From positions 1,430 to 65,429 of the forward strand of contig JBOHUE010000157.1 in the NCBI GenBank assembly GCA_050734185.1: DNA of 64,000 nucleotides, in the 5' to 3' direction. Position 1 is the first letter of the stretch; the number at the start of each line of letters is the position of its first letter. Under the pieces are notes generated by a model. The model worked only from the letters and a program-made list of their open reading frames with translations. It did no database searches and was not told the DNA's origin. Both the position numbers and the translations under genes were made by a program. The DNA comes from Candidatus Dormibacteria bacterium. Its GTDB lineage: Bacteria > Chloroflexota > Dormibacteria > Aeolococcales > Aeolococcaceae. This document shows positions 932-43,802 of this stretch, piece after piece.

Positions 932-1215
932 GCGGACCCGACTCTACGCGTCTCGTCAGCACGCGCGGTCCGAAGCGTTCGGCCCGGCGGTAGCAGCACG
1001 TGGTCGCCGTGACGTGGCGGCCGTGCAACAACGCGTCCCACATCGGCGCGACAGGTCGTCGGACTGCGCTCCACGACGGTGCCGCTGCACGGTCACGAAG
1101 CGGTTGCCCATCGAGGGCGAGCGCCGCCGCGACTCGAAGCTAGGTCCATCGCCGCGGGTGTTGTCGAGGAAGGCCTCGCGGATCCCAACCATCGATCACG
1201 ACGTGAGGAACCCTG

Positions 1216-3402: not shown

Positions 3403-3431
3403 GGGCTCCTGAGGGCGGCATACTCCGCCTC

Positions 3432-4838
3432 ATGGCTACCGGCGAGGCCACAGTCCCGGTGCGCCGGGTTGGCCTGCGCGTACGCCTCAGCCCCTCTGCC
3501 GCGGTGCCGGTGCTCGTCATCGTCCTCGGCCTGCTCGCCTACCACCAGATCTACACGGTCTACCGGTTCGACACCCCGGTGCACGGTGACGGCGAGGGCT
3601 ACTACGCGTACCTCCCGGCGTGGTTCTTGTTCCACGACGCGGGCTTCAACTCTCTGATTCGTGATCACCTGCTGCCGGCGTACGCCGCGCTCGGCCATCA
3701 GCAGGCGTCGCAGTTCGGCTTCTCGCTGCAGGCGACCGGCAACTGGCTCGACAAGTACGGGGTCGGCGAAGCACTGCTGCTGCTGCCCTTCTTCGGCATC
3801 GGTCACGCGGTGGCGGTGTTCGCGGGCACGGCGGCGGACGGGTACACGAACGCCGAGGTCTACACGGTCGGTGCCGCGGCACTCGTCTACATGGCGGCGG
3901 GGCTGTTTGCGCTTCGCGCTGTGCTGCGGCGCTGGTTCCCCGAATGGGTGATCGTCACGACGCTGCTCGCGATCACGCTGGGCACGAGCCTCTTCGACTT
4001 CGCCACGTGGGAGTCGTTGGGCAACCATGCCTTCAGCTTCTTCGTGGTCGCGCTGCTGATGCTGGAGGCGTTCCGCTGGTACGAGCGGCCGCGGTCGTGG
4101 ACCGCTCCGCTGCTCATGGGCGCCCTCGCCGGACTGCTGCTCGACATCCGGCTGACCAATGCGGTGCTCCTCATCGCCGTGCCGCTCCTCGGAGTCGGGT
4201 CGGTGAAGCAGCTCCGCACACGCGGGCGGTTGCTGTGGGAGCAGCGTCTCAAGGTTGCAGCGGGGGCCGGCGTTGCGGTGCTGGTGTTCGTGCCGCAGAG
4301 CGTCGCGTGGTACATCGCGACCGGTCATGTGTTCGTCCGGTCGTATCCCGGCGAGTCATTCGACTTCCTGCACCCGCACCTGCTCGAGTCGCTGTTCTGG
4401 TTGCAACCGCACGGGCTGCTGCCGTACGCGCCGGTTCTCACGCTCGCGTTCGCCGGCCTCGTGTGGGCCTGGGTCAAGCGTCGCGACATCGCGCTGCCCG
4501 TCACGGCTGCGTTTCTCCCATTCTGGTACCTGGTGAGCTCGTGGTACGACTGGTCGTATTCGCAGTCATTCGGGCAGCGTGGCTTCATCGACGTGCTGCC
4601 GTTCCTCGCGCTGCCGCTCGCGTTTCTGCTCGCATCACTGCGCGCGCGCTGGGTGCGCGTCGCCGCCGTCGCCGTCACCGGTGTCATGGTGGGAGCAACG
4701 ACCGTGCTGATGGTCGCGTACTGGCAATACCGCGTGGCCGGCAACGGGCTCAACTGGACCGACTACGCGGCCATATTCCGGCACCCGCACCTGCTGTTCG
4801 GCCCGCCGCAGTTCCCCTCGTGGATGCCGCATCCATAG
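3432..4838 (+). CDS. polytopic membrane protein, GT-C superfamily glycosyltransferase-like (PMT/ArnT-like, presumably polyprenyl-phosphate-sugar dependent)
   Basis: About 11 predicted TM helices. First extracytoplasmic loop has acidic motif DTPVHGDGEGYYAYLPAWFLFHD resembling the DE/DEx loop-1 motif of GT39/GT83 enzymes. High GC3. Sits in the glycosylation cluster. Confidence 0.55.
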   Translation: MATGEATVPVRRVGLRVRLSPSAAVPVLVIVLGLLAYHQIYTVYRFDTPVHGDGEGYYAYLPAWFLFHDAGFNSLIRDHLLPAYAALGHQQASQFGFSLQATGNWLDKYGVGEALLLLPFFGIGHAVAVFAGTAADGYTNAEVYTVGAAALVYMAAGLFALRAVLRRWFPEWVIVTTLLAITLGTSLFDFATWESLGNHAFSFFVVALLMLEAFRWYERPRSWTAPLLMGALAGLLLDIRLTNAVLLIAVPLLGVGSVKQLRTRGRLLWEQRLKVAAGAGVAVLVFVPQSVAWYIATGHVFVRSYPGESFDFLHPHLLESLFWLQPHGLLPYAPVLTLAFAGLVWAWVKRRDIALPVTAAFLPFWYLVSSWYDWSYSQSFGQRGFIDVLPFLALPLAFLLASLRARWVRVAAVAVTGVMVGATTVLMVAYWQYRVAGNGLNWTDYAAIFRHPHLLFGPPQFPSWMPHP

Positions 4839-4854
4839 CTACACTCCCACGCCG

Positions 4855-6600
4855 ATGGCCGACGCGCGGCGCGTGAGCCCCGTGCTCATGCGACTTGTCA
4901 GGACGCTGCTGCCGATAGCGCTCTACCTCGGTGTCGCCTTCGCCCTCACCGCAGGCGTCTGGCATGACCCGGCGCACACATGGCCGGGACCGCAGGGAGA
5001 CGTCTACAAGTTCATCGACTTCATGTCGTGGGTGCCGCACGCAATCGCGCACGGCAAGGACCCCTTCTTCATGGGTGTGATCGACTATCCCGACGGCGTC
5101 AACCTGACATGGGAGACGCCCGCGTTGCTCGGCGACGTGCTGATCTGGCCGTTCACCGCGCTCCTCGGGCCGCTTCCCGCATACAACGTGTTCATCCTCC
5201 TGAGCATCACCCTCGACGGGTGGTGCACGTATCTCTGGCTGCGCCGGCATGTGCGCTCACCGTGGGCAGCCGCCCCGGCTGCGCTGCTCATCGCGCTCGG
5301 GCCCTGGGTGGCCGTGCACGCGCAGCAGCTCAACCTCATCTCGTTCTGGCCTCTCCCGCTGATCTTCATGGCGGCCGAGGATCTCCTCCGCGGGGAACGA
5401 AGCCGGGTGTGGACGGGGCTCGTGCTCGGCGTGCTGTTCGCGGTGCAGCTGTACCTCGCCGAAGAGCTCGCGGTCCTGGCCGCCATCGGCCTCGCGCTGG
5501 CGATCGTCGCCACCGTCCTCGCACTCGGCGCGAGCATCCGGCCCGCGATCCCCCGCGTCGTGGCGTCTGGAGCGATCGCGATTGCCACCGCGGTCGTGCT
5601 CACGGCGCCGCTGTTGATCTACCAGTTCAGAGGCCCGCGGCGCATCCACGGCATCATCCACCCCCCTGGTTTTTACGTCACCGACCTGCAGAACTTCCTC
5701 ATTCCCACGGGAGTCACGTGGGCGTGGCCGCAGTCGGTCACCGCGGCGGACGTGGGCGCGTGGAGCGGTCCGAGTGAGGCGGTCGGGTACATCGGCATCC
5801 CGCTGCTGCTGATTGCTCTGTACGCGGTGGTCCGATGGTGGCGCGAACCACTCGTCAGGATCGCCGGCCTGACCATCGCCGCGGCCGCAATCCTGAGCCT
5901 GGGGCCACATCTGCACATCGGCGGGGTCGACACCGGCATCCGCCTGCCGGGCGTGATCTTCAGCCGCCTGCCGCTGCTCGAGAACCTCATCCCGTCGCGC
6001 ATTGCGCTCATCACGGCGTTCGGGCTCGCGTTCCTGCTCGCGATCACGCTGGACCGCACGCTGCTGCGCAATCCGCTGCGCAGCGTGAGCACCGCGCTGG
6101 TGTCGGTTGTCGGCCTCGCCGCCATCGTCTCGATGGTGTCGCAGCTTCCGCTGCCGGCGTCGTCGACATCGATCCCGGCGTACTTCCAACCCGGCGGTGG
6201 CGCGACGCGACTCCCGGCGGGAACCGTCGCGCTGGTCGCACCGTATATCGATGACGGCGCCGTCTCACCCGTCGTCATGCTGTGGCAAGCTGAGAGTGAC
6301 TTTCACTTCGCGCTCACCGACGGTCTCGCCATCACCGCGGATGCGAATGGCAACGCAGCGTTTCTGCCGACGACGCCACTACGTCTGGCGTTCGACCAGA
6401 TCCAGCTCGAGGGCCATCTGCCCGCCGAGACCGCGGCGCTGCGAGAGAGCCTTCTGGCCACGATGCACGCCGACAACGTCAGCGTCATCATCGTCGGCCC
6501 CATGCAGCAGCGCGAGCTCGCGGTGGAATTCATCGACTGGCTCACCGGCCGTACCCCGGTGGACGGGGAGGACGTCAGCGTCTGGAGCGGGCCACCATAG
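4855..6600 (+). CDS. polytopic membrane protein with C-terminal soluble domain, YfhO/GT-C-like putative glycosyltransferase
   Basis: Multiple TM helices over about 400 aa, then a soluble C-terminal domain of about 150 aa. This architecture resembles YfhO-type polyprenyl-P-sugar-dependent glycosyltransferases. Family assignment not verified. Confidence 0.5.
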   Translation: MADARRVSPVLMRLVRTLLPIALYLGVAFALTAGVWHDPAHTWPGPQGDVYKFIDFMSWVPHAIAHGKDPFFMGVIDYPDGVNLTWETPALLGDVLIWPFTALLGPLPAYNVFILLSITLDGWCTYLWLRRHVRSPWAAAPAALLIALGPWVAVHAQQLNLISFWPLPLIFMAAEDLLRGERSRVWTGLVLGVLFAVQLYLAEELAVLAAIGLALAIVATVLALGASIRPAIPRVVASGAIAIATAVVLTAPLLIYQFRGPRRIHGIIHPPGFYVTDLQNFLIPTGVTWAWPQSVTAADVGAWSGPSEAVGYIGIPLLLIALYAVVRWWREPLVRIAGLTIAAAAILSLGPHLHIGGVDTGIRLPGVIFSRLPLLENLIPSRIALITAFGLAFLLAITLDRTLLRNPLRSVSTALVSVVGLAAIVSMVSQLPLPASSTSIPAYFQPGGGATRLPAGTVALVAPYIDDGAVSPVVMLWQAESDFHFALTDGLAITADANGNAAFLPTTPLRLAFDQIQLEGHLPAETAALRESLLATMHADNVSVIIVGPMQQRELAVEFIDWLTGRTPVDGEDVSVWSGPP

Positions 6601-6652: not shown

Positions 6653-7846
6653 ATGACTTTCCCCAACGACATCGTGATCATGGGTGGCTGCGGACACGTC
6701 GGCCTGCCGCTCGGGATCGCGTTCGCCTGCCGCGGTCTTCGCGTGGAGCTGTTCGACACCAATGCCGACGTCGTGCAGATGGTCAACGGCGGGCAGATGC
6801 CGTTTCGCGAGAATGGAGCCGATGGGGCGCTCGCCACCGTGCTGCGCGAGGGTCGTCTGACCGCCACCAGCGATCCCGCGTCGATCGCGCGTGCGGAGAA
6901 CGTGGTCGTGGTGGTCGGCACGCCGGTCAACCGCTATCTCAGCCCCGACATCGAGGCGGTGCCGCGCGCGCTGATGTCCGTCGCGGAACATCTCGTCGAC
7001 GGTCAGCTCATCGTGCTCCGCAGCACGGTGTACCCGGGTGTCACAGCGCTGGTCGAACGGCAGTTGCGCGATGCCAGCGCGTCAGTCGAGGTCTGTTTCT
7101 GCCCCGAACGGATCGCTGAGGGCCACGCGCTGGAGGAGCTGCACCAGCTGCCCCAGATCGTTGCCGCGCGCAGCCCGCACGCGATCGATCGCGCGAGCGC
7201 GCTGTTTCGCCAGCTCACCGATCACATCGTCGAGCTGTCGCCGGAGGAGGCGGAGCTGGCCAAGCTCTTCACGAACACCTGGCGTTACGTGAAGTTCGCG
7301 GCGGCCAACCAGCTGTTCATGATCGCCAACGACCGCGGCCTCGACTTCGAGCGCATCCGCGGTGCGATCACGCACATGTATCCGCGTGCGGCGGACATGC
7401 CCGGCCCCGGATTCTCCGCCGGCCCCTGCCTGTTCAAGGACACGATGCAGATCGCTGCATTCTCGGAAAACACGTTCACGCTGGGTCATGCCAGCGTCAT
7501 GATCAACGAGGGACTGCCGCTGTACGCCGTGGGTAAGCTGGAGCAGCGCTTCGACCTGTCGACGATGACGATCGGCATCCTCGGGATGGCGTTCAAGGGC
7601 GGCTCGGACGACACACGGGCGAGCCTCAGCTACAAGCTGAAGCGGCTGCTCAAACTCAAGGCTCTCGAAGTCCTCTGCACGGATCCCTACGTGTCGTCGG
7701 ACGACGACCTGACGCCGCTCGACGACGTGCTCGCGCGGGCGGACCTGCTCATCGTCGCGACGCCACACCCGGAGTACGCGGCGCTGCAGCCGGGCGTTCC
7801 CGTCGTCGATCTCTTCAACATTCTGGGACAGGGCGTCGTCATTTGA
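6653..7846 (+). CDS. nucleotide-sugar dehydrogenase (UDP-glucose/GDP-mannose dehydrogenase family)
   Basis: N-terminal Rossmann IVIMGGCGHVGLPLG; catalytic-region motifs FCPERIAEG and GFSAGPCLFKDT (equivalents of NPEFLxEG and GGSCFPKD); C-terminal UDP-binding domain. Confidence 0.85.
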   Translation: MTFPNDIVIMGGCGHVGLPLGIAFACRGLRVELFDTNADVVQMVNGGQMPFRENGADGALATVLREGRLTATSDPASIARAENVVVVVGTPVNRYLSPDIEAVPRALMSVAEHLVDGQLIVLRSTVYPGVTALVERQLRDASASVEVCFCPERIAEGHALEELHQLPQIVAARSPHAIDRASALFRQLTDHIVELSPEEAELAKLFTNTWRYVKFAAANQLFMIANDRGLDFERIRGAITHMYPRAADMPGPGFSAGPCLFKDTMQIAAFSENTFTLGHASVMINEGLPLYAVGKLEQRFDLSTMTIGILGMAFKGGSDDTRASLSYKLKRLLKLKALEVLCTDPYVSSDDDLTPLDDVLARADLLIVATPHPEYAALQPGVPVVDLFNILGQGVVI

Positions 7847-8598
7847 AGCCGCGCGTCTCGGTGGTCGTTCCCGTGCACAACGAGGGCGACGGCGTCACTG
7901 CGTTTCTCGAGCGACTGTTCGAGGCGCTGTCGCTTCCGGCTGAGGTGCTGTGCGTGTACGACGGCCCCGAGGACACCACGCTGCCGACGCTGCACCATGT
8001 TGCGCAACGCGAGCCGCGCTTGCGCGCCGTGCACAACACGTACGGGCGCGGCCCGGCGAACGCCATCCGCTTCGGCATCGACAACGCCATCGCGGATGTG
8101 GTTGTGGTCACGATGGCGGACGGCAGTGACGATCCGATGCAGATCGACCCCCTCACGCGGCTCGTCGAACGTGGCGTCGTGGTGGCGTGCGCCTCACGCT
8201 ACATGCGCGGGGGGCAGCAGGTGGGCGGCCCGTGGCTCAAGGGACGCATCTCGCGCACCGCAGGCGTCTCACTGCGGGTGTTCGGCAGAGTCGGGACGCA
8301 CGACGCCACCAACTCGTTCAAGGCGTATTCGCGAGCGTTCGTGCGCAAGGTCGGCATCGAGTCGGATGCGGGGTTCGAGATGGGACTCGAGATGGTCGCC
8401 AAGGCACGCCGGCTCCGGCTCCCGGTTGCCGAGCTGCCCACCATCTGGCTGGACCGTACGGGCGGTGTGTCCAACTTCAAGGTGCGCGCGTGGATGCCCC
8501 GCTACCTGCGCTGGTACTTGTATGCACTGGGGATGGGCAGGACGGACGCGCGCCGCGGCACGCAGCCGGACAGTTCTCTGGAGGCGGCGTCAGAGTGA
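7843..8598 (+). CDS. GT2 glycosyltransferase, polyprenol-monophosphate-sugar synthase (Ppm1/DPM1/CsbB-like)
   Basis: ATGA overlap with upstream gene; VSVVVPVHNE start and DGSDD (DxD-type) motif; about 250 aa, typical of the Ppm1 catalytic domain. Confidence 0.8.
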   Translation: MKPRVSVVVPVHNEGDGVTAFLERLFEALSLPAEVLCVYDGPEDTTLPTLHHVAQREPRLRAVHNTYGRGPANAIRFGIDNAIADVVVVTMADGSDDPMQIDPLTRLVERGVVVACASRYMRGGQQVGGPWLKGRISRTAGVSLRVFGRVGTHDATNSFKAYSRAFVRKVGIESDAGFEMGLEMVAKARRLRLPVAELPTIWLDRTGGVSNFKVRAWMPRYLRWYLYALGMGRTDARRGTQPDSSLEAASE

Positions 8599-9620
8599 GC
8601 ACAGTCCTTGTCACGGGATCGTCCGGGTTCATCGGCGGGTACGTCGTCGAGGAGCTGCTGGCCCGCGGCCACAGTGTGATCGGCATCGACAACGAGTCGA
8701 AGTACGGTCCGGTGTCCCGCTCCTACGACCAGCACAGCAACTACCGCCTCATCCGCGGCGATGTCCAGGACACAGCGCTGATGCGCGACGCGCTCGCCGG
8801 CTGCGATCACCTCATCGCCGGTGCTGCGATGATCGGCGGGATCTCGTACTTCCACACGTACGCGTATGACCTCCTCGCAACCAACGAACGAGTGATCGCG
8901 TCGACGTGTGACGCAGCCATCGACGCCCATCGGAACGGCAGGCTGCAGAAGGTCACCTACCTCAGCTCGTCGATGGTCTTCGAGTCCGCCGACCGCTGGC
9001 CCTCGTACGAAGGCCAGGAGCTCGAGGTCCCGCCGCCGAAATCGTCGTACGGCTTTCAGAAGCTTGCGGTCGAGTTCTTCGCGCGCGCGGCGCACCGTCA
9101 GTACGAGGTGCCGTTCACGATCGTGCGCCCCTTCAACTGCGTCGGCGTGGGCGAGGGACGGGCGCTCGGCGAGGTCGAGATCCTGAGCGGCAACGTGAAG
9201 CTGGCGATGAGCCACGTCGTGCCCGACCTGGTGCAAAAGGTGTTGAAGGGGCAGGATCCGCTGCACCTCCTCGGCGACGGCAGCCAGGTGCGTCACTACA
9301 CGTACGGCGGCGACCTGGCCAAGGGCATCGTCACCGCGATGGAGAGTCCTGCGGCGCTCAACGAGGACTTCAACCTCTCGACGCGCGACTCGACGACGGT
9401 GCTCGAGTTGGCCGAACAGATCTGGCGGCGGGTCCGGGGTGACGCGGTGCCGTTTCGCTACGTGTCGGATCCACCGTTCGAGTACGACGTGCAGCGCCGC
9501 GTCCCCGCGGTGGACAAGGCGGAGCGTGTCCTGGGGTTCGAGGCCACCACCACGCTCGATGAGATGCTCGACGAGGTGGTGCCGTGGATCGAGAGCGCCG
9601 TGGCAGCCGGCGCCATCTGA
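8595..9620 (+). CDS. NAD-dependent epimerase/dehydratase (extended SDR, UDP-sugar 4-epimerase/decarboxylase-like)
   Basis: GTG start at 8595 overlapping the upstream TGA (GTGA). The track ORF 8187..9620 is a 5' over-extension that overlaps the GT2 gene. Motifs VLVTGSSGFIGGYV (GxxGxxG) and SSYGFQK (YxxxK). Confidence 0.8.
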   Translation: MSTVLVTGSSGFIGGYVVEELLARGHSVIGIDNESKYGPVSRSYDQHSNYRLIRGDVQDTALMRDALAGCDHLIAGAAMIGGISYFHTYAYDLLATNERVIASTCDAAIDAHRNGRLQKVTYLSSSMVFESADRWPSYEGQELEVPPPKSSYGFQKLAVEFFARAAHRQYEVPFTIVRPFNCVGVGEGRALGEVEILSGNVKLAMSHVVPDLVQKVLKGQDPLHLLGDGSQVRHYTYGGDLAKGIVTAMESPAALNEDFNLSTRDSTTVLELAEQIWRRVRGDAVPFRYVSDPPFEYDVQRRVPAVDKAERVLGFEATTTLDEMLDEVVPWIESAVAAGAI

Positions 9621-9621
9621 T

Positions 9622-10911
9622 TCAGGCCGGCTGTGCGCTGCCGATGACCGCGTCGTCGGCCCGCGGCGCCTGGGTCGCGAACACCTCCCAGTCGAGACCC
9701 AAATCGTACTGGCCGGGCCGTCCCAGGTCATCGTTGACGCGGAACTCGAAGGATTGGTCCAGCCAGTCGTAAACGGTGGAGCCGGACTCGTTGTGCAGTC
9801 CGATGGTGGCGCGGTAGGTCCCCGTGAGGAACCGCAGTGCGTCGAGCTTGAACCGGAACACCGCGCCCTGGCCCGCCCGCAGCTGCGGCACCACGACGTT
9901 CGCCAGCTTCGTGTTGATGCCGCCGATGATCGAACCGTCGGCGCGATGCAGGCCGATGCCGACAATGGTGTCAGACACGTCGCGGTTGGCCTCGGCGGTG
10001 ATCTGGATCGTCATCGGCTCACCGGTGGTGAAGCTGACGTGCGGTTCGCCGTCGGCGCCGAGAAACCGCACGCTCTGCACGCGAATATCGCCGCTGCCCC
10101 AACGGCTGTCGCTGGGGCGGACATCGCTCAGGTCGACCAGGCTGCCACCGGACTCACGCCGCTCGTCGTCCTGCAGCTGGCCGATCAGCCGGTGATACCG
10201 AGCGGTCACGTCGGCGGCGTGCCCGTCCTCGACCACCTTGCCGTGCTCGAGCATGATCGCGCGGTCAGCGTAGAGCTCGACCGAGCTGAGGTCATGCGTC
10301 ACCAGGACGATGGTGCGTCCCTGGCGGCGGTAGTCGTTGAAGACGTCAAGGCATTTCGCCTGAAACCGCGCATCACCGACGGCGAGCACCTCGTCCATCA
10401 GAAGAATGGCCGCGTTCGCCTGGATGGCGACAGTGAACGCGAGGCGTACATGCATGCCCGATGAGAAGTTCTTCAGCTTCGTGTCGGCGAACTGATCGAG
10501 CTCGGCGAAGTGCAGCATCTCCTCCATGCGAGCCGAGAGGTCGCGTCGCGCGAGGCCGAGGATCGCGCCGTTGAGGAGCACGTTCTCGCGCGCCGTGAGC
10601 TCGGGATTGAAGCCCACGCCGAGCTCGAGAAAGGGCGACAGCTTGCCGTTGATTACCACTTTTCCGGTGGTCGGACGGTAGATGCGTGCCAGCATCTTCA
10701 GCAGCGTCGACTTGCCGGAGCCGTTGCGCCCGATGATGCCCATGAACTCGCCCTCGTGCACGTCGAAGCTCACGTCGTCGACCGCCAGAAGCGGGCGATA
10801 TCGCGAGGTGCTGCGCATGTGCACCACGCGGTGCTTGAGGGTGGCGCTCTTGTCGAGCGGTATGCGAAACCGCTTGGTCACGTGGCTGGCGGAGAGGGCG
10901 AGGTCGCTCAC
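9622..10911 (-). CDS. wzt: ABC transporter ATP-binding protein Wzt with C-terminal Wzt_C-like carbohydrate (chain-terminus) binding domain
   Basis: GTG start at 10911 overlaps the permease stop (GTGA). Walker A GIIGRNGSGKSTLL, signature FSSGMHVRLAF, Walker B ILLMDEVLAVGD. About 170-aa C-terminal beta-rich extension typical of Wzt/TagH. The upstream part of track ORF 9622..11865 is an out-of-frame artefact over the permease gene. Confidence 0.85.
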   Translation of the reverse strand: MSDLALSASHVTKRFRIPLDKSATLKHRVVHMRSTSRYRPLLAVDDVSFDVHEGEFMGIIGRNGSGKSTLLKMLARIYRPTTGKVVINGKLSPFLELGVGFNPELTARENVLLNGAILGLARRDLSARMEEMLHFAELDQFADTKLKNFSSGMHVRLAFTVAIQANAAILLMDEVLAVGDARFQAKCLDVFNDYRRQGRTIVLVTHDLSSVELYADRAIMLEHGKVVEDGHAADVTARYHRLIGQLQDDERRESGGSLVDLSDVRPSDSRWGSGDIRVQSVRFLGADGEPHVSFTTGEPMTIQITAEANRDVSDTIVGIGLHRADGSIIGGINTKLANVVVPQLRAGQGAVFRFKLDALRFLTGTYRATIGLHNESGSTVYDWLDQSFEFRVNDDLGRPGQYDLGLDWEVFATQAPRADDAVIGSAQPA

Positions 10912-11738
10912 AGGCTTTCGGCGAACGTCGGTGATAGCCAGCGGAACGTGAAGAGGCCCAGGACCAATAGCCCGATCGACAATGCAACCGGCACGGCGGC
11001 GAGAGCGTGGACCGACGCGATGCTGGACGCTGCGTCGGGCACGACGATGACGTGGCGCACGTCCTCGATGATCTGTGCGACCGGGTTGATGAAGAACAGG
11101 CCGTGGAAGCGCACCGGGACCAGCGTGATGGGGTACACGATCCCCGACGCGTAGAAGATGACCTGCGTGAGGATCTCCCAGATGTGTCCCAGATCGCGAT
11201 AGAACACGAACAGCGAAGCGAGCAAGAGCGAGAGTCCGAGCGAGAGCACGTAGAGCTCGAGCACGAGCGGAATCGCAAACAGTGAGCGAAGCCCGAGCTG
11301 GAGATGCCCCAACGGTGCAGCCACGACGACGATGAGCGTGAGGTTGATGACGAACGTCATCGCGGCGGTCATCGACGAGGCCACCACCAGTACCCAGCGC
11401 GGGAAAAACGCCTTCTGGATGAGACCGGGGTTGCCGGCGATCGAGCTCATCGCGGTGCCCGTGCACTCGGTGAAGAACGTGAAGATGACGATGCCGACCA
11501 GAAGTTGCACGGCAAACTCGTGCGCACGCTGTTTGAACAGCACCACGAAGATTGCGTACATGATGCTGAACAGCATCGCCGGCTTCAGCAGCGACCAGAG
11601 ATAGCCCAGCACGGACCCCGTGTACTTGAGCTTGAACTGCGTCCAGGCGAGCTCTCGAATCAGCGCGGCGTTGCGGGCGAAATCCGAGAAGCGGTCCGCC
11701 ACCGGTGGGCGCGCGCCCACTCGTGCGAGCACACTCAT
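10908..11738 (-). CDS. wzm: ABC-2 type polysaccharide exporter permease Wzm
   Basis: 276 aa with 6 TM helices; ABC-2 signature region FKLKYTGSVLGYLWSLLKP; translationally coupled to wzt. Confidence 0.85.
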   Translation of the reverse strand: MSVLARVGARPPVADRFSDFARNAALIRELAWTQFKLKYTGSVLGYLWSLLKPAMLFSIMYAIFVVLFKQRAHEFAVQLLVGIVIFTFFTECTGTAMSSIAGNPGLIQKAFFPRWVLVVASSMTAAMTFVINLTLIVVVAAPLGHLQLGLRSLFAIPLVLELYVLSLGLSLLLASLFVFYRDLGHIWEILTQVIFYASGIVYPITLVPVRFHGLFFINPVAQIIEDVRHVIVVPDAASSIASVHALAAVPVALSIGLLVLGLFTFRWLSPTFAESL

Positions 11739-11762
11739 GGCGGGCCAAGTGTACCAGGCAGG

Positions 11763-12974
11763 CTATTCGGGAGCAGCCGGCGCATGAGCGATCACCGCGT
11801 AGTCCTGCGGACCGAACAACACGTCGTTGAGCCGCGACAGCGCGACATTGATGTTCGTCGCCCACTCGGGAACGTCGCCGTCCGGCAGCAGCGGCAGATG
11901 GTATGCGGACGCCGGCGCGAAGTACCGAATCTCGACGTCGCGAAAGCCGGCTCGCTCGCAGAGAAAGATCAACAGCAGCGGGTGCAGCGGGCGCACGTGC
12001 GTGGGGTCGAGCACATACGAGTTGCCGAGCACGATGAGCGACGAAGGATTCGGTGTCTCGGCGATGAAGACGCCGCCGGGCTTGAGCCGCGAGACGGCGA
12101 GCTCGAGCAGCTCGAGCAGCTGCTCGAGCTGGAGATGCTCCACCACCTGCATGGAGACGACTGCACCGTACGTGTTCGGCGGAGCCATGCGCAGAGTGTC
12201 CACCGCGTCTGCCAGGCGAACGTTGCGGCCGAGCGCTGTCGCTTCGGCAACTGCGTCCGCACTCAGGTCGACACCTTCGGCGTCGATTCCTTCCGCCGCG
12301 AGCAGAGCCACGAGCTCACCCCGGCCGCATCCGACATCAATGACCGGGGCGTGATTGCGCAACACGCTGAGATAGCGTTCGCGCTGCGCGCCGGTGATCG
12401 TGTCCGAGTCGCCGCGGAACCGCCGCTCGAAGCCGGCGTAATCGAACCCGCTCGATCCCGCAGGCATCGGGGCAGCCGCCGCCGCGGCCGGAGCCGTCGC
12501 ACTCGGAGGCTCCGGCGTGGATTGCATGATCCGCCGCGTCCGCCGGTCGATGTCGTTGATGCGCTGGCGCAGCTCGCCCATGCGCACGCTCGCCCCCGAG
12601 AGCCCAGCGGTGGGCGCTATCGCGTCGCCGAGGTCGTTGAGAACGGCGAGCAGCGACCGCATCTCGGCCTTGTGCAGCTCCTGGTTGATCGTCAGCTCGC
12701 GCACCTGTCGCTCCGAGTCGCGCAGCGAGGCCCCGAGCTCCTGCTCGGCACTCGCCACCGCGGTGTGCGCTGCTGCCTCAGCTGCGCCGTCGACGTACCA
12801 CGCGATGCCGCGCCGGATTACACGCTTCAGCTGCGTCTTGGCAGCACCCAGTGGGGGCAGCGGCCGGCGCGCCGGGACCACATCGGGCGCGGCGTCGGTG
12901 GGACGGGTGACCGCCATGCGTTGCCGCAGGCGTTCGAACGCCTCGGGGTCGAGATACGCGGGCCGTCTTCGCAT
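11763..12974 (-). CDS. class I SAM-dependent methyltransferase with N-terminal coiled-coil (candidate WbdD-like chain terminator)
   Basis: N-terminal approximately 130 aa heptad/coiled-coil-like; C-terminal MTase motif I VIDVGCGRGELV and post-I VVSMQVVEHL; immediately upstream of wzm-wzt. Confidence 0.7.
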   Translation of the reverse strand: MRRRPAYLDPEAFERLRQRMAVTRPTDAAPDVVPARRPLPPLGAAKTQLKRVIRRGIAWYVDGAAEAAAHTAVASAEQELGASLRDSERQVRELTINQELHKAEMRSLLAVLNDLGDAIAPTAGLSGASVRMGELRQRINDIDRRTRRIMQSTPEPPSATAPAAAAAAPMPAGSSGFDYAGFERRFRGDSDTITGAQRERYLSVLRNHAPVIDVGCGRGELVALLAAEGIDAEGVDLSADAVAEATALGRNVRLADAVDTLRMAPPNTYGAVVSMQVVEHLQLEQLLELLELAVSRLKPGGVFIAETPNPSSLIVLGNSYVLDPTHVRPLHPLLLIFLCERAGFRDVEIRYFAPASAYHLPLLPDGDVPEWATNINVALSRLNDVLFGPQDYAVIAHAPAAPE

Positions 12975-13838
12975 TCAGGACGCGACCACAAACGGTTTGA
13001 GCGCGAGGCGAGCACGTCGACGGACCATCGCCGATTCCGGGGTGTTCAATGCGTCGAGCGCTGACTCGACGCGCATCAGCGAAAGCAATTCGGGCGAGCC
13101 GAGCAGGCCGAGCGCGGTCGCGACCCGGGCGCCGACGTTGCGGCGACCGCGACTCGACTCGATCAACCGCCGCCCCGAGCGGCTGAGCGCGGCGGCCCGA
13201 GGCATATCGCCCGCGACGTGCAGCGCGAGGTCGGCGAGCTGGTCGTCGAACCCGACCTCGACGTCGACACCCGGGCGCGCCCCGATGCGCTCGGCCGAGA
13301 GGCTGTCGGTGACGGTCGGCGCGGCCCACGCCAGCGCCTGCGTGAGCCCCTCGCCGATCGCAATGCATGCAGAACAGACGGTCAGCGCCGGCGCCAGCCC
13401 GCCGGCGGGGATGCTGTCCGTGCGCAGATCGACGACCATGCGCTCGGGCAGGCCCTCGCGGCGGCGGATTCGCGCCCGGACAAACGGGGCCACCGGAGGG
13501 ATCGCGTCGACATCGATGCCGCCGTCCGGGGGGATCAGGACGGCGCTGCGGTCGCGGGCAAGGTCGGCGTCGCCCGTGAGGAGCAGCGTCGCGGGCACCC
13601 CCACGGCACTGTCGGGATCCTCGTCGTCGATCCACATGGCAACGGGCTTGCCCGAACTCAGCGCCGCCGCCAGGCCGAGCGCGCGTGGTGAGGAGGCGAT
13701 GTAGGCAGCCGGGACACTCTCAGGCTCGACGAACAGCGGTGTCGCCCAGCGGCCGAGCTCGCGCAGCAGCCAGGCGAAATTCGGAGGGGGATCGGGCGCC
13801 GCGAGCACGCCGAGCAGCGGCAGCTGCGGGGAGCTCAT
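12975..13838 (-). CDS. hypothetical protein (possible degenerate GT-B C-domain)
   Basis: Strong GC3 bias in this frame; ATGA overlap with the upstream GT4 gene and abuts the methyltransferase start. No confident domain recognised; alternate-frame ORFs 12517..13704(+) and 12778..13635(-) judged artefacts. Confidence 0.45.
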   Translation of the reverse strand: MSSPQLPLLGVLAAPDPPPNFAWLLRELGRWATPLFVEPESVPAAYIASSPRALGLAAALSSGKPVAMWIDDEDPDSAVGVPATLLLTGDADLARDRSAVLIPPDGGIDVDAIPPVAPFVRARIRRREGLPERMVVDLRTDSIPAGGLAPALTVCSACIAIGEGLTQALAWAAPTVTDSLSAERIGARPGVDVEVGFDDQLADLALHVAGDMPRAAALSRSGRRLIESSRGRRNVGARVATALGLLGSPELLSLMRVESALDALNTPESAMVRRRARLALKPFVVAS

Positions 13839-14875
13839 CCGGCCAGCCGGCCCGCTGCCCGCGAAGCTCCCAGGAGCGCGTCGACGACGTCGTCCCAGTT
13901 GAGTCCGTTGGCGCGCCGCCGTCCCGCCTCGCCCAGGCGGCGCGCCAGATCGCGATCCGCGTCCAGACGCGCGATCGCCTCGGCAACGTGGTCAGGGCTC
14001 CCGTCGGTCACCAGGCCGGTCACGCCGTCCTCGACCCACTCGAGGACACCGCCGGAGTCGCGAGCGGTGATCACCGGCTTGCCGGAGAGGAACGCCTGCA
14101 GCGTCACGTAGCCGTAGTCCTCCTCGTGAGGCAGGTAGACGACGGCGAGCGCGCCGGCAAATCGAGCGATGAGATCCTCGTCGTCGAGAAAGCCGGTGAT
14201 CTCCAGCCGGGGTCCAAGCCGCAGGCGCTCGGCGGCGGCGCGGATCGCGGGTTCCAGCGACCCGGGACCGGTGAGCACGCCGCGGACGCCCGAGGGACAC
14301 CGCGCCAGCGCCTCGACCAGCAGCTGCGGGCGCTTGTTGCGCTCGAGGCGCATCGGGGCGAACACGTAGTCGCCAAAGGGCCCGGAGTGCAGTCGATCGG
14401 ACAGGGGTGGCGGATGGTACAGGGGTGTCGAGCCGAGCCCGTTGAAACGCAGCAGCCGCTCGCTGACGACGTGCGAGGTGGTGAACACGCGCTCCGCCTC
14501 CTCGAGGGCTCGCGTGTCCCAGTCCGTCATCACCTGCTGCGCCTCGAGCGAGTCGTCGTCGGTGCCGATGTCCGACCACGACGAATCGGCCGCGTCATAG
14601 AGCGCCCGATGTTGGTGAAAGAGCCACACAACCTTGTCGGGATGCGTCGCGAAGTACGAGGGAAAGTTCGTGCAGATGACGAGGTCGGCGTCAAGTGGGA
14701 GCAGACGCCACGCAAGCGCAGCGTCAAAGATCCGCACTCTGTCCCACGCGACCGGCAGTCTGACAAGCTCCGCCTCATGCCGGGCCCTGCCGAGCGCGGT
14801 CACGAGGTTCTCCATGTGCATCTCGGCGCCACCGCGCATGAACGGCTTTTGCGCCCCGCAAACGAGAATCCGCAT
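13835..14875 (-). CDS. GT4-family glycosyltransferase
   Basis: Real start taken at the internal ATG (MRILVCG, nt 14875; alternative ATG at 14902). The 407-aa track ORF start at 15058 would overlap the divergent gene. GT-B C-domain with FLSGKPVITARDSGGVLEWVEDGVTGL. Confidence 0.75.
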   Translation of the reverse strand: MRILVCGAQKPFMRGGAEMHMENLVTALGRARHEAELVRLPVAWDRVRIFDAALAWRLLPLDADLVICTNFPSYFATHPDKVVWLFHQHRALYDAADSSWSDIGTDDDSLEAQQVMTDWDTRALEEAERVFTTSHVVSERLLRFNGLGSTPLYHPPPLSDRLHSGPFGDYVFAPMRLERNKRPQLLVEALARCPSGVRGVLTGPGSLEPAIRAAAERLRLGPRLEITGFLDDEDLIARFAGALAVVYLPHEEDYGYVTLQAFLSGKPVITARDSGGVLEWVEDGVTGLVTDGSPDHVAEAIARLDADRDLARRLGEAGRRRANGLNWDDVVDALLGASRAAGRLAG

Positions 14876-14922
14876 CCTGCTCTCTGTACTCGCGGGCATC
14901 ATAGAGACTTTCCGCGTCAGCG

Positions 14923-16188
14923 GTGCACAATCCAGAGGAACCAGTGGTGAACGAATCTCGCCCCTACGGCCGCATCGGCTTCGTGGCCCCGCGGTTCGGC
15001 GAACGCGTCGTGGGCGGCGCCGAAGCCGTGCTGCGCGAGGTGGCGCAGGGCTTTGCACGCCGGGGCTGGGATGTCGAGGTCCTCACCACCTGCGCGCGAG
15101 ACCACTTCACGTGGGCAAACGAATACGCGCCGGGGACGGAGCGAGTCGGAGATCTCACGGTGCGGCGATTTCCCGCGGTGGTGTCAACCGCTCGCAGGGA
15201 CCGCGCGCGCATCGAAGCGGCCATCCTCGCTGGCGACACGGTGAGCGTCGAGGACCAGCAGTGCTGGGTGAACGACGACCTGCGAGTCCCCGAGCTGTTC
15301 CATCATCTCGTCGACCACGCTCAGGACTATCGCGCGCTCGTGTTCGCTCCGTACATGTTCTGGACGACGTTCGCGGGCGCGCAGGTGGCTCCCGAACGCA
15401 GCATCTTGATGCCCTGTCTGCACGATGAGGCCTATGCCCGGCTCGACATCTTCCAGCCGGTGTTCTCCGGATGCGCAGGCGCGTGGTTTCTCTCCGACCC
15501 CGAGCATGCGCTCGCGCATCGTCTGTTCACCGTCCCCGGCCGCCATGAGGTCGTGGGCTCGGGCGTGCGCGTGCCTGCGACCTATCAGCCGGAACGCTTT
15601 CGCGAGCGACACGGCATCCGCGACCGCTTCGTGCTGTTCGCAGGGCGCCGCGAGGGTGGTAAGGGCTGGGAGCTGATGCTCGACGCATTCGCCCGCGCCG
15701 TGCAACGGCATTCGCTTCCCTTCTCGCTGGTGACGATGGGCACCGGCATCGTGCATCCACCGGAGTCGATCCGCGACCGGGTGATCGATCTGGGATTCCT
15801 CGACGACGAGGACCGCGACGACGCCTTCGCGGCGGCCGATGCATACATTCAGCCCTCACCGCATGAGAGCTTCTCGCGAACCATCATGGAGGCCTGGCTG
15901 GCGGGAACGCTGGTCATCGCCAACGGCGCCAGTGAGGTTGTTCGCTGGCACTGTGATCGGTCCGGAGCGGGGCTGACGTACGACGACGACGTTGAGCTCG
16001 GTCAGTGTCTCGCGTTCGCCGCAGAGTCACCGCAGAGCGCAGCGGCACTGGCCGGCCGCGGACGCGCATACGTCCTGGCGCATTACGCGCCCGACGCGGT
16101 GTTGCAGCGGCAGGAGGACACAATCCTCAGCTGGTTTCCCGCGACCGGCTCGGTGCCGGCCCAACGGCCCGATGAGGCGATTGCGTGA
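14923..16188 (+). CDS. GT4-family glycosyltransferase
   Basis: EX7E motif region ESFSRTIMEAWLAG; N-terminal RIGFVAP. The start may instead be the GTG at about 14948 (GAGGAA SD upstream), which would leave a roughly 70-bp divergent promoter region. Confidence 0.75.
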   Translation: MHNPEEPVVNESRPYGRIGFVAPRFGERVVGGAEAVLREVAQGFARRGWDVEVLTTCARDHFTWANEYAPGTERVGDLTVRRFPAVVSTARRDRARIEAAILAGDTVSVEDQQCWVNDDLRVPELFHHLVDHAQDYRALVFAPYMFWTTFAGAQVAPERSILMPCLHDEAYARLDIFQPVFSGCAGAWFLSDPEHALAHRLFTVPGRHEVVGSGVRVPATYQPERFRERHGIRDRFVLFAGRREGGKGWELMLDAFARAVQRHSLPFSLVTMGTGIVHPPESIRDRVIDLGFLDDEDRDDAFAAADAYIQPSPHESFSRTIMEAWLAGTLVIANGASEVVRWHCDRSGAGLTYDDDVELGQCLAFAAESPQSAAALAGRGRAYVLAHYAPDAVLQRQEDTILSWFPATGSVPAQRPDEAIA

Positions 16189-17609
16189 CCCGCATCCTGG
16201 TCATCGCGCCATATCCGCCGGTGCGTGACGGCATTGCCGCGTACACGGTGCAGTCGGTGGCCCGCCTGCGTCACGCGGGCAATCACGTTGAGGTGCTGTC
16301 TCCGTACCCGTCCGCGGCACACCACCACCTGCCGCTCAACACCATCAACGGAGTGCTGCGGCTGATCCCGTACGTTCGCCGTTTCGACACGGTCCTCGTG
16401 CAGTACCACCCGGACATCTTCTTCCCGCGCTCGAGCAGCGCAGCGGAACGCGAGCGCATCGCCGCGGCCCTCACGCTCGTGTGGCGCAGCGCAGCGCACG
16501 TCGAGATTCGAGTCCACGAAGCTGATTACGCGCGGGCGCATCGCGGGCCGGCGTGGCTGGCGACGCGCGCGATGTGGCGCGCCGCGTCCCGGATAACGGT
16601 GCACACCGGCACCGAGCGGACACTGTTCCATCGAGCGTACGGCCTCCCGCTCGCACGCATCGAGGTGGAGCGTCACGGCAGCGACTTCGCCGTGCGCAGT
16701 GGCGACAGCCGTGATGACGCGCGTGCTCGGCTCGCGCTGCCGCGCGACCAGCTCATGTTTCTGTCGATCGGTTTCATCCAGCCGCACAAGGGCTTCGACC
16801 GGGCGATCCGGGCGTTCATCGCGAGTGGCGCCGCCGGATCGAGGGGGGCACGACTCGATGTCGTCGGTTCCGTGCGCGTCGAGGAACCGGCGTATGTCGC
16901 TCACCTGGAGGAGCTGCAGCGGCTCGCCGACGCGACCAGCGACGTGCATCTGCACGTGGGCTTCATCGGCGATGAGGAGTTCGATACCTGGATCGTCGCC
17001 GCGGACGTCATCGTGCTGCCGTATCGCCACATCTGGTCATCGAGCGTGATGGAGCGCGCCGCACTGTACGGCCGGCCCGTCCTCGCCGCAAGGGTTGGCG
17101 GCCTCGCCGACCAAGCGCGGCCGAACACCACCCTGTTCGACGACGACGCCGAGCTGGCAGCCGCCATGCGGCACATCGTTGCGGAGCGCGGCGTCGCCCT
17201 CGACACGAGTCCGGCGCCGCGCATCCCCTGGCCGGACCCCGAAACGGCCACGCGCGCCATCGTCGAAGACGAGGTGCGGAGCCGCGCGGCCGCCGAGCGC
17301 CGCGCTCTGTTCCCGAGTGACCGAAACGGCGCTGCGCCGCCCACCTCCACAAACGGCACGGCCCTCACCGGCGTGAGCGCACGGCTGCGCCGGCTCCCGC
17401 CACTGCAGCTGCCCGCCCCCGAGTCACCCCGGCCCGGCGCGACTCCGCTCAAGCGGTTGATCCAGCGTCTCACGCGCTGGCAGCTGGAGCCGATCGTGCA
17501 TCAGGTCAACGAGCTGCAGCGGGTCGTCGCCAGCACACTGGAGGACCGCCCGCTCGGGGAATCGGATCAGGCGCCCGACAGCCCGCGGACGCTGGTGTCG
17601 CCCCCGTAG
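16185..17609 (+). CDS. GT4-family glycosyltransferase with about 120-aa low-complexity C-terminal extension
   Basis: GTG start overlapping the upstream TGA; ILVIAPYPP N-terminus; C-domain motif VLPYRHIWSSSVMERAALYGRPVL. Confidence 0.75.
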   Translation: MTRILVIAPYPPVRDGIAAYTVQSVARLRHAGNHVEVLSPYPSAAHHHLPLNTINGVLRLIPYVRRFDTVLVQYHPDIFFPRSSSAAERERIAAALTLVWRSAAHVEIRVHEADYARAHRGPAWLATRAMWRAASRITVHTGTERTLFHRAYGLPLARIEVERHGSDFAVRSGDSRDDARARLALPRDQLMFLSIGFIQPHKGFDRAIRAFIASGAAGSRGARLDVVGSVRVEEPAYVAHLEELQRLADATSDVHLHVGFIGDEEFDTWIVAADVIVLPYRHIWSSSVMERAALYGRPVLAARVGGLADQARPNTTLFDDDAELAAAMRHIVAERGVALDTSPAPRIPWPDPETATRAIVEDEVRSRAAAERRALFPSDRNGAAPPTSTNGTALTGVSARLRRLPPLQLPAPESPRPGATPLKRLIQRLTRWQLEPIVHQVNELQRVVASTLEDRPLGESDQAPDSPRTLVSPP

Positions 17610-20113: not shown

Positions 20114-20250
20114 ACGACCCTGAGCCTATGGACCCCCTGCACCCGCCATCCGCGTCGCTACAGGCTCGTCGCAGCGCGGTCATCGATTGCGAAAGACGCC
20201 GCGGAACGCGACACGACGCGCCTGCCATGCCCACTACCATGTGATCGCAC

Positions 20251-21408: not shown

Positions 21409-21507
21409 CCCACCATCCGCAACGACGTTGTTACGACGCCATCATTTCGTTCAGGCGGTTCACACCGACCATGCAACGGGCGGTATCGATAATCGCAGGA
21501 GCATGGT

Positions 21508-25638: not shown

Positions 25639-25697
25639 GCCCCGAGTGTTCGCCGTCGAGACGGACGCGAGCCGGACGATCTTCCCTTACGGGAGCG

Positions 25698-41997: not shown

Positions 41998-42286
41998 GAC
42001 TCTGTCGACCCCGGACGCGGGTGGCGAAGCGGTAACTCGAGTAGGAACGCGAGCGCAACAGGCCAGCGAATCGTGGCCCGATTGGTTGAAACGTGCGGTT
42101 GAGTCACACGAGAAAGCATTCGAGAGTGAGAAGAAGCGCAATGGCGACGGAGATAGCTCGGGAATGGCTTAAATGTTGCCCGTTTGCTTCCCTTACATAG
42201 AGAGACCGCCCCATCGGAGCGCCTTCGTCCGGTTACGCGGCGCGGATCGCTGCTGAGCCGCTAGGCGTGCACCGGGAGAGAGAAGA

Positions 42287-43729: not shown

Positions 43730-43758
43730 TCCTCCACACGGAGCTCTCCGTATCCATA

Positions 43759-43802
43759 CCGCGTTGGCCATTACATCGCACCGCGTTGGCCATTACATCG
43801 CA
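43759..43802. repeat. perfect 22-bp tandem direct repeat x2 (CCGCGTTGGCCATTACATCGCA)
   Basis: Seen directly, 30 bp after the stop of 42287..43729. Confidence 0.8.

Follow-up and report, generated by a model that had tools for sequence, protein, structure and literature searches.

In Escherichia coli O8/O9a, a terminal modification halts polymerisation of the O-antigen and is then read by the C-terminal domain of Wzt, with the terminator protein carrying a coiled coil, a logic that the locus described here appears to share. GT4-type polymerising enzymes are also common to both, those of E. coli being WbdA, WbdB and WbdC. In the terminator WbdD, an N-terminal methyltransferase (accompanied in O9a by a kinase) is followed at the C-terminus by a long coiled coil together with a region that binds the membrane and WbdA (PMC3482155, PMC11231755). 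The terminator ORF6 of Klebsiella pneumoniae O7 differs from the protein considered here: it is a multidomain protein in which two GT2 modules are combined with a methyltransferase, a kinase, a CBM and a coiled coil, and its cap is a methyl-phosphate (PMC11231755). For the transporter itself, the best solved homologue is WzmWzt from Aquifex aeolicus (7k2t, 8dku, 8dky, 6o14), which covers both the nucleotide-binding domain and the cap-binding domain (CBD) of our Wzt. The Aquifex CBD binds 3-O-methyl-mannose, in a 3-O-methyl-sugar pocket formed by T346, H350 and the lid residue W362, among others (PMC9445017).

Two further systems bear comparison. The CPA “TET” operon of the Pseudomonas syringae complex contains wzm, a wzt with a Wzt_C domain, a “WbdD” O-methyltransferase and a WbdA-like glycosyltransferase (GT), and Tn5 mutants of the wbdD methyltransferase are rough (PMC7820976). 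In the S-layer system of Geobacillus stearothermophilus, a rhamnan capped by 2-O-methylation, with Wzm/Wzt as its predicted exporter and a methyltransferase domain lodged within WsaE, offers a monoderm precedent for a methyl-capped glycan (PMC2943079).

The window, that is the whole stretch of 64,000 nucleotides that was analysed, comes from a metagenome-assembled genome (MAG) of Candidatus Dormibacteria, in a soil phylum without cultured members. The locus it holds probably covers termination and export within an operon of this Dormibacterota genome by which a lipid-linked glycan is made in an ABC-transporter-dependent manner. As such it is a fairly ordinary operon of a known kind for sugar-polymer export, of which this module is an uncharacterised member.

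Gene order and the Wzm/Wzt exporter

All seven genes of the module are co-located in the window. The minus-strand operon opens with GT4a (13835–14902), a GT4-family glycosyltransferase (Glycos_transf_1, E 2.4e-21) whose start was placed at MMPAST rather than at the end of the mechanical open reading frame (ORF), which reaches 15058. Its stop overlaps by 4 nt the next gene, U287 (12975–13838, minus strand), and the stop of U287 abuts the ATG of the methyltransferase gene (11763–12974, minus strand, 403 aa) in a TGAATG junction. The order is then methyltransferase, wzm, wzt. A gap of 24 nt separates the methyltransferase stop from the ATG of wzm at 11738, and wzm (10908–11738, minus strand) encodes an ABC-2 type permease of 276 aa (ABC2_membrane, E 5.2e-16) with about six transmembrane (TM) segments, six hydrophobic segments having been counted. 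The wzm stop and a GTG start of wzt overlap (GTGA at 10911–10908), so the true Wzt (9622–10911, minus strand) is a 429-aa ATPase; the 747-aa mechanical ORF lying over it was discarded as a high-GC artefact. On the plus strand are GT4b (14923–16188), a divergently transcribed GT4-family glycosyltransferase with Glyco_trans_1_4 and Glycos_transf_1 domains, and GT1c (16185–17609), a third GT4-type enzyme (Glyco_trans_1_4, E 1.9e-10), the two overlapping by 4 nt.

Searches of the PDB with the GT4a and GT4b sequences returned only generic GT4 matches (PimA, MshA-like), which point to no particular donor sugar. U287 is a fast-evolving, degenerate GT4-like protein of 287 aa (C-terminal half of GT-B) with no match in Pfam or NCBIfam. 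A word-based homolog search found only five proteins, and hhalign places its residues 164–245 on residues 266–349 of the GT4a ortholog profile (probability 94%, E 1.3e-7). Of the seven module proteins compared with NCBIfam, six had no equivalog above threshold. The module includes no kinase, which fits a plain methyl cap.

In Wzt, ABC_tran matches residues 45–175 (E 4.5e-24), and the Walker A, signature, Walker B and H-loop motifs are intact at residues 61, 149, 169 and 205. The C-terminal CBD (residues 269–393; 9733–10107, minus strand) matches Wzt_C (PF14524) with E 1.2e-26 and 93.9 bits, against a Pfam gathering threshold of 30.4 bits, and the original prediction of a Wzm/Wzt pair whose ATPase is of the Wzt_C type is thus borne out. 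Residues 40–394 align with full-length Aquifex Wzt (8dku/7k2t) over both domains (E 8e-67). When the CBD is searched alone, that of Aquifex comes first (8dky/6o14, E 4e-9), followed by weaker matches to the CBDs of E. coli O9a (2r5o, E 0.003) and R. terrigena (5hno, E 0.04).

The pocket is partly kept. Aquifex T346, H350 and lid W362 correspond to the identical T369, H373 and W383 of the window protein; A348 is replaced by G371, L300 by G320, H355 by S376 and hinge Y233 by His, and the trap loop is two residues shorter than in Aquifex. On this basis, the Wzt C-terminal domain is predicted to bind a modified non-reducing end. In an alignment of 32 CBDs, made up of those of the window and Aquifex and 30 others taken from related loci, 24 have Arg where Aquifex has its lid Trp, so cap recognition may differ even though the methyltransferase is conserved.

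The methyltransferase and its N-terminal coiled coil

The catalytic class I SAM-methyltransferase domain occupies residues 179–397 (11784–12440, minus strand; pLDDT >90). Methyltransf_23 matches residues 199–348 (E 6.4e-17), and SAM motif I (VIDVGCGRG, at residue 211) is intact. This C-terminal domain is 3dli-like and carries the motifs ETPNP, DPTH and FGPQDYA, of which ETPNP, DPTH and FGxQ are invariant across the family. In NCBIfam its best matches are weak, sub-threshold hits to UbiG and MetW-type models. Some homologs carry the source name “ubiquinone methylase.”

The closest annotated homologue is the coiled-coil methyltransferase of a Pseudomonas wzt-methyltransferase-GT operon, on plasmid pCC1524 of P. 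asturiensis, with 36% identity over residues 123–401 (294 aa, E 3e-44), an alignment that takes in the catalytic domain and the linker together with the last helix of the coil. That operon encodes, in order, Wzt with Wzt_C (E 8e-31), the coiled-coil methyltransferase, a GT4 enzyme and gmd, and it is by this layout that we liken it to the P. syringae TET operon. As in the window, a Wzt with Wzt_C adjoins GT4 enzymes and a protein with an N-terminal coil and a C-terminal methyltransferase. However, the Pseudomonas host is Gram-negative and makes LPS, the gene order is wzt-methyltransferase-GT, and there is no U287-type partner. The protein is also longer (518 aa against 403, with a weak DUF4214 match). 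It lacks the conserved AIAPxxGL hairpin block of the window protein, and its Q/L/E-rich N-terminal stretch, a putative continuous coiled coil, is much longer, at roughly 110 aa.

With WbdD, the methyltransferase domain has no sequence or structural kinship beyond the generic class I fold; its domains come in the opposite order, its coil is short and broken by a turn, and no kinase is present. Of the “WbdD-like logic” originally proposed, the part that stands is the pairing of a terminator with a cap reader, for which Wzt_C, the Aquifex-like CBD and the Pseudomonas operon argue, while the methyltransferase itself is no WbdD relative.

The predicted coiled coil upstream of wzm-wzt is real, yet short and interrupted by a turn. 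In the AlphaFold2 model, helices 43–60, 63–119 and 125–151 make up an N-terminal module (residues 43–151; 12522–12848, minus strand), followed by a disordered, flexible Pro/Ala linker of 27 residues and the Rossmann domain. Over 32 family members, LIVMF residues fill 88% of the heptad a/d positions in helix 88–119 and 80% in helix 125–151, against 17% and 4% of the other positions, and none of 5000 shuffles matched this pattern. The strongly patterned stretch totals about 60 residues. N97, L100, A118, A120, P121, G124, R131 and R136 are invariant in the module, and the invariant AIAPxxGL turn splits helices 63–119 and 125–151, an arrangement more suggestive of an antiparallel hairpin or bundle than of an extended rod. 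A search of 1.84 billion representatives with the N-terminal module alone found only 32 proteins, full-length members of the family of about 310–450 aa, which gives no evidence of a portable docking domain.

Could this coil act as a full WbdD-like ruler, fixing the distance between the methyltransferase and a membrane-bound polymerase so that coil length sets the modal chain length? Besides the strong heptad pattern, several features speak for it: helix 63–119 would span roughly 85 Å, homologs differ in the length of the region that precedes the conserved block (93–234 aa from the N-terminus to the FDY motif, 34–51 aa from AWYVD to N97), the Pseudomonas homologue has its long putative coiled coil at the equivalent position, and coiled coils have been named as a feature that marks terminators (PMC11231755). 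Helix 43–60, which is basic (+5) and contains Trp/Tyr, could bind the membrane, but neither a TM segment nor a clear amphipathic membrane anchor was detected. The heptad core, moreover, is strongly conserved and of fixed spacing: N97 lies 21 aa from AIAP in 110 of 113 homologs, the invariant Ala-x-Ala-Pro-x-x-Gly turn breaks the core, and the flexible linker follows it. The WbdD spacer, at about 140 residues, is much longer. A ruler is on balance unlikely. Of the claim that the coil sets chain length, the heptad-patterned coil survives, but it does not look like an extended, variable ruler; with a short core split at fixed spacing, length control by the coil stays conjectural.

A conserved module and the proposed mechanism

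The synteny set comprised 80 species-level loci holding the methyltransferase, 60 of them with enough flank. GT4a and GT4b are each present in all 60, GT1c in 59 and U287 in 53; a Wzm or Wzt gene is found at no more than 8 kb in 44, and neither is in the other 16. Among 31 co-located Wzt homologs, 29 have a C-terminal extension of 152–185 aa (112 and 303 aa in the other two). The whole seven-gene set recurs in the closest Dormibacterota locus, and carriers of the module include Acidimicrobiia, Cellulomonas and a Bifidobacterium breve MAG, as well as the isolates Cellulomonas fimi, Blastococcus aggregatus and Pseudonocardia acidicola. Synteny of the methyltransferase with the GTs and Wzm/Wzt is thus kept across two phyla, and our literature search turned up no account of the module from Actinobacteria or Dormibacterota, nor of its product. 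Orthologous modules do occur in Gram-positive Actinomycetota; the Gram-positive-type envelope originally suggested for the present host, however, is not supported, as a Candidatus Dormibacteria MAG is no proven Gram-positive.

Taken together, homology and synteny lend good support to a predicted cap-gated export at this locus. In the mechanism that we propose, the three GT4-type glycosyltransferases and their degenerate GT4-like partner would build the polymer on the cytoplasmic face. The methyltransferase, tethered or oligomerised by its heptad-patterned helical hairpin, would O-methylate the sugar at the non-reducing end and so stop elongation; the Wzt C-terminal domain would then bind the methylated end and license export through the Wzm channel, as homology to Aquifex WzmWzt suggests. 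We infer the methyl cap, the methyl acceptor, the termination effect, the chain-length determinant and the destination of the polymer, and we regard the mechanism as a whole as reasonably probable. Counting against the cap and termination explanation, the methyltransferases of a comparable locus, that of P. aeruginosa CPA, did not act like length regulators of the WbdD type (PMC3560663). The 16 loci that show neither wzm nor wzt within 8 kb, and the pocket and trap-loop differences from Aquifex, also weigh against it.

The methyl acceptor could in fact be an internal residue instead of the chain end. The methyltransferase would then decorate internal repeat sugars, Wzt_C would read some other feature or the backbone, and export kinetics would set length. 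Its tighter tie to the three GTs (59–60 of 60 loci) than to wzm/wzt (44 of 60) points this way, as do the change from lid Trp to Arg in most actinobacterial CBDs and a second methyltransferase (DUF4214 plus methyltransferase) in the same cluster. We nevertheless find this doubtful: 29 of the 31 co-located Wzt homologs bear the CBD-sized extension, Thr, His and Trp of the Aquifex pocket are retained in the CBD of the window, and in Pseudomonas the homologous methyltransferases adjoin a Wzt_C-bearing Wzt in loci interpreted as termination operons.

It is still less probable that the exported glycan is destined for secreted proteins, by O-glycosylation of the S-layer type, rather than for a wall or lipid anchor. 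Geobacillus sets the precedent (PMC2943079), the cluster does encode secreted repeat proteins, and two nearby 10-TM proteins (3138–4838, with DUF6541, and 4855–6600) are candidate transferases. In Geobacillus, however, the glycan is passed to the S-layer protein by an oligosaccharyltransferase, none of which is detectable in the window, and the methyltransferase of WsaE, unlike ours, shares its polypeptide with two rhamnosyltransferase modules. Domains of the Wzy_C, O-OTase and PglL types were looked for and not found, and the two polytopic proteins stand beside the module in just 1–2 of 80 loci. Finally, a chance neighbour acting on an unrelated small molecule or lipid, as the UbiG/MetW-type matches and “ubiquinone methylase” names might suggest, is effectively refuted by the synteny with GT4 enzymes and a CBD-bearing Wzt conserved across two phyla, which places the enzyme, as originally supposed, outside the small-molecule methyltransferases. 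Those matches also fall far below cut-offs, and in Sulfitobacter homologous domains occur in fusions with GT4 modules.

Secreted repeat proteins and a possible surface role

Next to GT1c lies the gene of a secreted FG-GAP protein (17567–20113, minus strand; FG-GAP_3), an accessory member whose ortholog sits inside the module in 28–29 of 80 loci, about a third. Its six C-terminal 42-aa repeats (GYxLDGxGGxHPFG...YWxGWDI) form a six-bladed beta-propeller and are common to two other window proteins; all three are secreted, and one is a CHAP protein. CHAP domains typically act as peptidoglycan hydrolases. Homologs of the repeat domain from Dormibacterota, Actinomycetota and Chloroflexota occur in fusion with Peptidase_M23, Amidase_2, CAP, GH43 and Ig-like domains. 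Pfam holds no model for the repeat, and Foldseek places the domain only among generic 6–7-bladed propellers; a likeness to tectonin/PLL lectins was dropped, no methyl-sugar lectin being found among the 50 matches listed. Tentatively, and with low expectation, the module might make a methyl-capped wall glycopolymer on which the propeller, as a cell-wall-targeting domain not described before, would dock; if so, this would amount to a surface-display system for these phyla resembling SLH/SCWP.

Nearly all that has been established on cap-gated Wzm/Wzt export comes from Gram-negative O-antigens, and here the same logic appears in a module that is tightly conserved, both in Dormibacterota and across Actinomycetota. 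The isolates that carry it provide a route to identifying the envelope glycan of these phyla, which is probably methyl-terminated, and would allow one to test whether a short coiled-coil hairpin can do the work of the long ruler of WbdD.

Gene order and conservation of the module

Mechanical ORF lists of the window are full of long spurious frames because its G+C content is about 68%, and the operon genes were defined by GC3 filtering and a reading of the gene junctions. Five of them lie on the minus strand: the GT4-type glycosyltransferase GT4a (13835-14902), the 287-residue protein U287 (12975-13838), a 403-residue methyltransferase or MTase (11763-12974), the transporter Wzm (10908-11738), and its ATPase Wzt (9622-10911). 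The junctions are tight: the GT4a stop and the U287 start overlap by 4 nt, the MTase ATG abuts the U287 stop (TGAATG), 24 nt separate the MTase from wzm, and the GTG start of wzt overlaps the wzm stop (GTGA). The span of the original prediction, 9622-12974, coincides exactly with the last three genes of this operon in the order of transcription, those for MTase, Wzm, and Wzt. Two more GT4-type genes, GT4b (14923-16188) and GT1c (16185-17609), are divergent from this operon and complete a seven-gene module. On its other side, wzt converges with an epimerase/dehydratase gene (8187-9620, plus strand), with a single nucleotide between the stop codons (9620-9622) and so no space for a terminator hairpin.

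Dormibacterota belong to Terrabacteria, as an uncultured sister lineage of Chloroflexota (PMC10608941); the Gram-positive-type envelope originally proposed for the host is no more than plausible. Scanning one genome for each GTDB species yielded 80 related loci, in two Dormibacterota MAGs and many Actinomycetota, including Acidimicrobiia, Frankiales, Mycobacteriales, Cellulomonas fimi, Blastococcus aggregatus, Pseudonocardia acidicola, and a Bifidobacterium breve MAG. Their six-frame ORFs were searched with the window proteins, and presence was counted in the 60 loci whose flank upstream of the MTase reaches 6.5 kb or more. GT4a and GT4b were each present in 60/60, GT1c in 59/60, and U287 in 53/60, with Wzm or Wzt inside the 8-kb flank in 44/60. 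The usual actinobacterial order is Wzm-Wzt-GT4b-GT1c divergent from GT4a-U287-MTase; contrary to most Actinobacteria, the window has wzm-wzt relocated behind the MTase. Judged by this synteny with glycosyltransferases and Wzm/Wzt, the MTase is part of a glycan system.

U287, whose gene always immediately precedes that of the MTase, is fast-evolving (only 5 homologs by word search) and has no family match. It is remotely related to the C-terminal half of GT4a (hhalign probability 94%), and may be a non-catalytic scaffold.

Further genes surround the module. A nucleotide-sugar dehydrogenase is encoded at 6653-7846 and a fourth GT4 enzyme at 20245-21408. Two plus-strand genes adjoining the sugar-nucleotide genes encode proteins of about 10 transmembrane segments, one with a weak DUF6541 match (3138-4838) and one with no family (4855-6600); neither is a conserved neighbour of the module elsewhere, and both may act as extracytoplasmic glycosyltransferases or ligases. 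Between the glycan cluster and succinyl-CoA ligase genes, a lone VirD4/TraG-type type IV coupling protein is encoded (23887-25686, minus strand). Farther away, the low-GC region 40000-54100 (0.58-0.63, vs. about 0.68 elsewhere in the window) has genes for a cytidine-deaminase-domain protein, two HNH_2 endonuclease proteins in tandem, and a 1572-residue Sacsin + NOV_C protein; it resembles an acquired island that may serve defence.

The methyltransferase and its relatives

The MTase matches Methyltransf_23 over residues 199-348 (Pfam, E 6.4e-17, well over the curated threshold), and its SAM motif I is intact. In an AlphaFold2 model computed from 32 homologs (mean pLDDT 78, above 90 in the catalytic domain), helices span residues 43-60, 63-119, and 125-151; residues 152-178 form a disordered Pro/Ala linker, and 179-397 a Rossmann-type domain. 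At the family level, the a/d positions of the two main helices are 88% and 80% LIVMF, against 17% and 4% elsewhere, a heptad pattern matched by none of 5000 column shuffles. The description of the protein as a coiled coil plus SAM methyltransferase was thus correct. The coil is however short, and broken by an invariant A-x-A-P-x-x-G turn (A118, A120, P121, G124). N97 stands 21 residues from the AIAP motif in 110/113 homologs, and AIAP is followed by the FDY motif after 59-64 residues. Used as sole query, the N-terminal module retrieved only 32 proteins, all full-length and of about 310-450 residues.

The family as a whole is large: of the candidates scored, 3614 proteins reach E ≤ 1e-3. Its best solved relative by sequence is 3dli, an uncharacterised Archaeoglobus methyltransferase (E 3e-42, or 1.6e-62 with the family profile), and no WbdD chain appears in the match lists of either search. 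Since the domain order is moreover reversed and there is no kinase, the enzyme is not itself a member of the WbdD family. Nor does the MTase belong to an unrelated small-molecule clade, the outcome that would have spoken against the original prediction, because its synteny with glycosyltransferases and Wzm/Wzt is conserved; its NCBIfam matches to UbiG and MetW are weak and far under the cut-offs.

A closer parallel was found by tblastn of plasmids. Pseudomonas asturiensis pCC1524 encodes a 412-residue Wzt with Wzt_C (E 8e-31), then an overlapping 518-residue protein with a long N-terminal Q/L/E-rich stretch (judged a coiled coil by eye), a weak DUF4214 match, and a C-terminal methyltransferase, followed by a GT4 enzyme and a GDP-mannose dehydratase. 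The two methyltransferases share 36% identity over residues 123-401 of the window protein (E 3e-44), that is, its last coiled-coil helix, linker, and catalytic domain. This layout matches the P. syringae “TET” operon (wzm, wzt, a “wbdD” O-methyltransferase, and a wbdA-like glycosyltransferase), in which chain termination is ascribed to the methyltransferase, whose Tn5 mutants are rough (PMC7820976); the P. asturiensis operon is taken to represent this type. In Sulfitobacter, a methyltransferase domain of the window type is fused to two GT4 modules, recalling WsaE of Geobacillus (PMC2943079). From the Pseudomonas operon and the Sulfitobacter fusion, the catalytic domain is placed by homology in a clade that has been recruited time and again to work with glycan polymerases and Wzt. 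A second methyltransferase, with DUF4214, is cut by the window edge (2-943, minus strand); it shares 29% identity with the MTase across the SAM-binding core and has homologs in 11/80 related loci. DUF4214 also recurs in the Pseudomonas coiled-coil methyltransferase and in adjacent genes of the pCC1524 locus.

Could the N-terminal coil then be a true molecular ruler, as the original claim of a length-controlled polymer implied? The segment upstream of the conserved coil block does vary in length among homologs, and in the Pseudomonas homologue the helical part at the N-terminus is much longer, but the hairpin core of the MTase is of fixed length and a flexible linker separates coil from catalytic domain, so a ruler role seems improbable. 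Most likely, the enzyme oligomerises through the helical module or is docked by it to the glycosyltransferase complex.

Probable cap recognition and export

The transporter genes are clearly assigned, with Pfam matches well over the curated thresholds for Wzm (ABC2_membrane, E 5.2e-16) and Wzt (ABC_tran, E 4.5e-24), and the Wzt ATPase motifs are intact. The predicted cap-binding domain (CBD) is also there: Wzt_C (PF14524) matches Wzt residues 269-393 (E 1.2e-26, 93.9 bits vs. 30.4). In 29 of 31 co-located Wzt homologs the extension after the ATPase domain measures 152-185 residues, the other two having 112 and 303. Wzt residues 40-394 align to the Aquifex aeolicus transporter (8dku/7k2t, E 8e-67), and the last 174 residues alone to the CBDs of Aquifex (8dky, 6o14; E 4e-9), E. 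coli O9a (2r5o; E 0.003), and Raoultella (5hno; E 0.04).

The Aquifex CBD binds 3-O-methyl-mannose or -rhamnose in a pocket made of L300, T346, and A348 with W362 as lid, while H350, H355, and the ATPase-domain residue Y233 contact the chain (PMC9445017). In a HMMER alignment (chain numbering being paper numbering + 1), these correspond to G320, T369, G371, and W383, and to H373, S376, and H240. The window CBD thus keeps the Thr, the His, and the lid Trp; the other mapped residues differ, and the trap loop is two residues shorter. Such residues fit a methyl-sugar pocket, without being proof of one. Among 32 aligned CBDs (30 from related loci, the window, and Aquifex), most members retain the Thr, Ala, and His (24, 27, and 27), and the lid position is Arg in 24, with Trp confined to Aquifex, the window, and two loci. 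Where the lid is Arg, the cap may differ in its chemistry or in how it is bound. The lid Trp, whose Aquifex counterpart stacks on the methyl group, is encoded at about 9763-9765; among the related loci the partner MTase is 45-58% identical even so.

Methyl-capped, CBD-gated export is the reading that we hold to be rather probable. The GT4 enzymes and a non-canonical partner, U287, would build a polyprenol-linked polymer in the cytoplasm; the MTase would methylate the non-reducing terminal sugar and stop growth; binding of this end by the Wzt CBD would then trigger export through Wzm. A plain methyl cap is preferred over methyl-phosphate because no kinase is present. Neither an initiating phosphoglycosyl transferase nor the acceptor of the exported polymer was identifiable within the window. 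The original prediction holds as an observation, and its interpretation is supported in part.

Secreted repeat proteins and the setting of the module

Three secreted proteins encoded nearby have C-terminal arrays of a common 42-residue repeat (GYxLDGxGGxHPFG...YWxGWDIAR) for which there is no Pfam model: a Big_3_5 protein (1207-3402, plus strand; array at 2590-3399), an FG-GAP protein (17567-20113, minus strand; array at 17567-18388), and a CHAP protein (21493-23730, plus strand; array at 22261-23676). AlphaFold2 predicts an all-beta repeat domain (pLDDT 93, pTM 0.90) resembling only generic propellers; from its six 42-residue repeats and strand pattern, the model is read as a six-bladed beta-propeller. 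The 507 repeat homologs are fused to Peptidase_M23, Amidase_2, CAP, GH43, TIG, and fn3 domains. Such diversity of partners is typical of wall-targeting modules, and suggests this role for the array. In 28-29 of the 80 loci, the module itself includes an FG-GAP gene with the repeat, suggesting that the repeat domain may bind the polymer made there.

The reading of a terminal modification by the Wzt C-terminal domain is established in E. coli O8/O9a, Klebsiella O12/O4/O7, and Aquifex, and has been extended to a monoderm with the Geobacillus S-layer glycan (PMC2943079). The coiled-coil-then-methyltransferase architecture is likewise already present in the P. asturiensis wzt-MTase-GT operon. The module itself is undescribed in the literature searched and has no NCBIfam equivalog. 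What is new is its setting, as a conserved seven-gene module of Dormibacterota and Actinomycetota, made distinctive by its own N-terminal hairpin domain and its degenerate glycosyltransferase partner.
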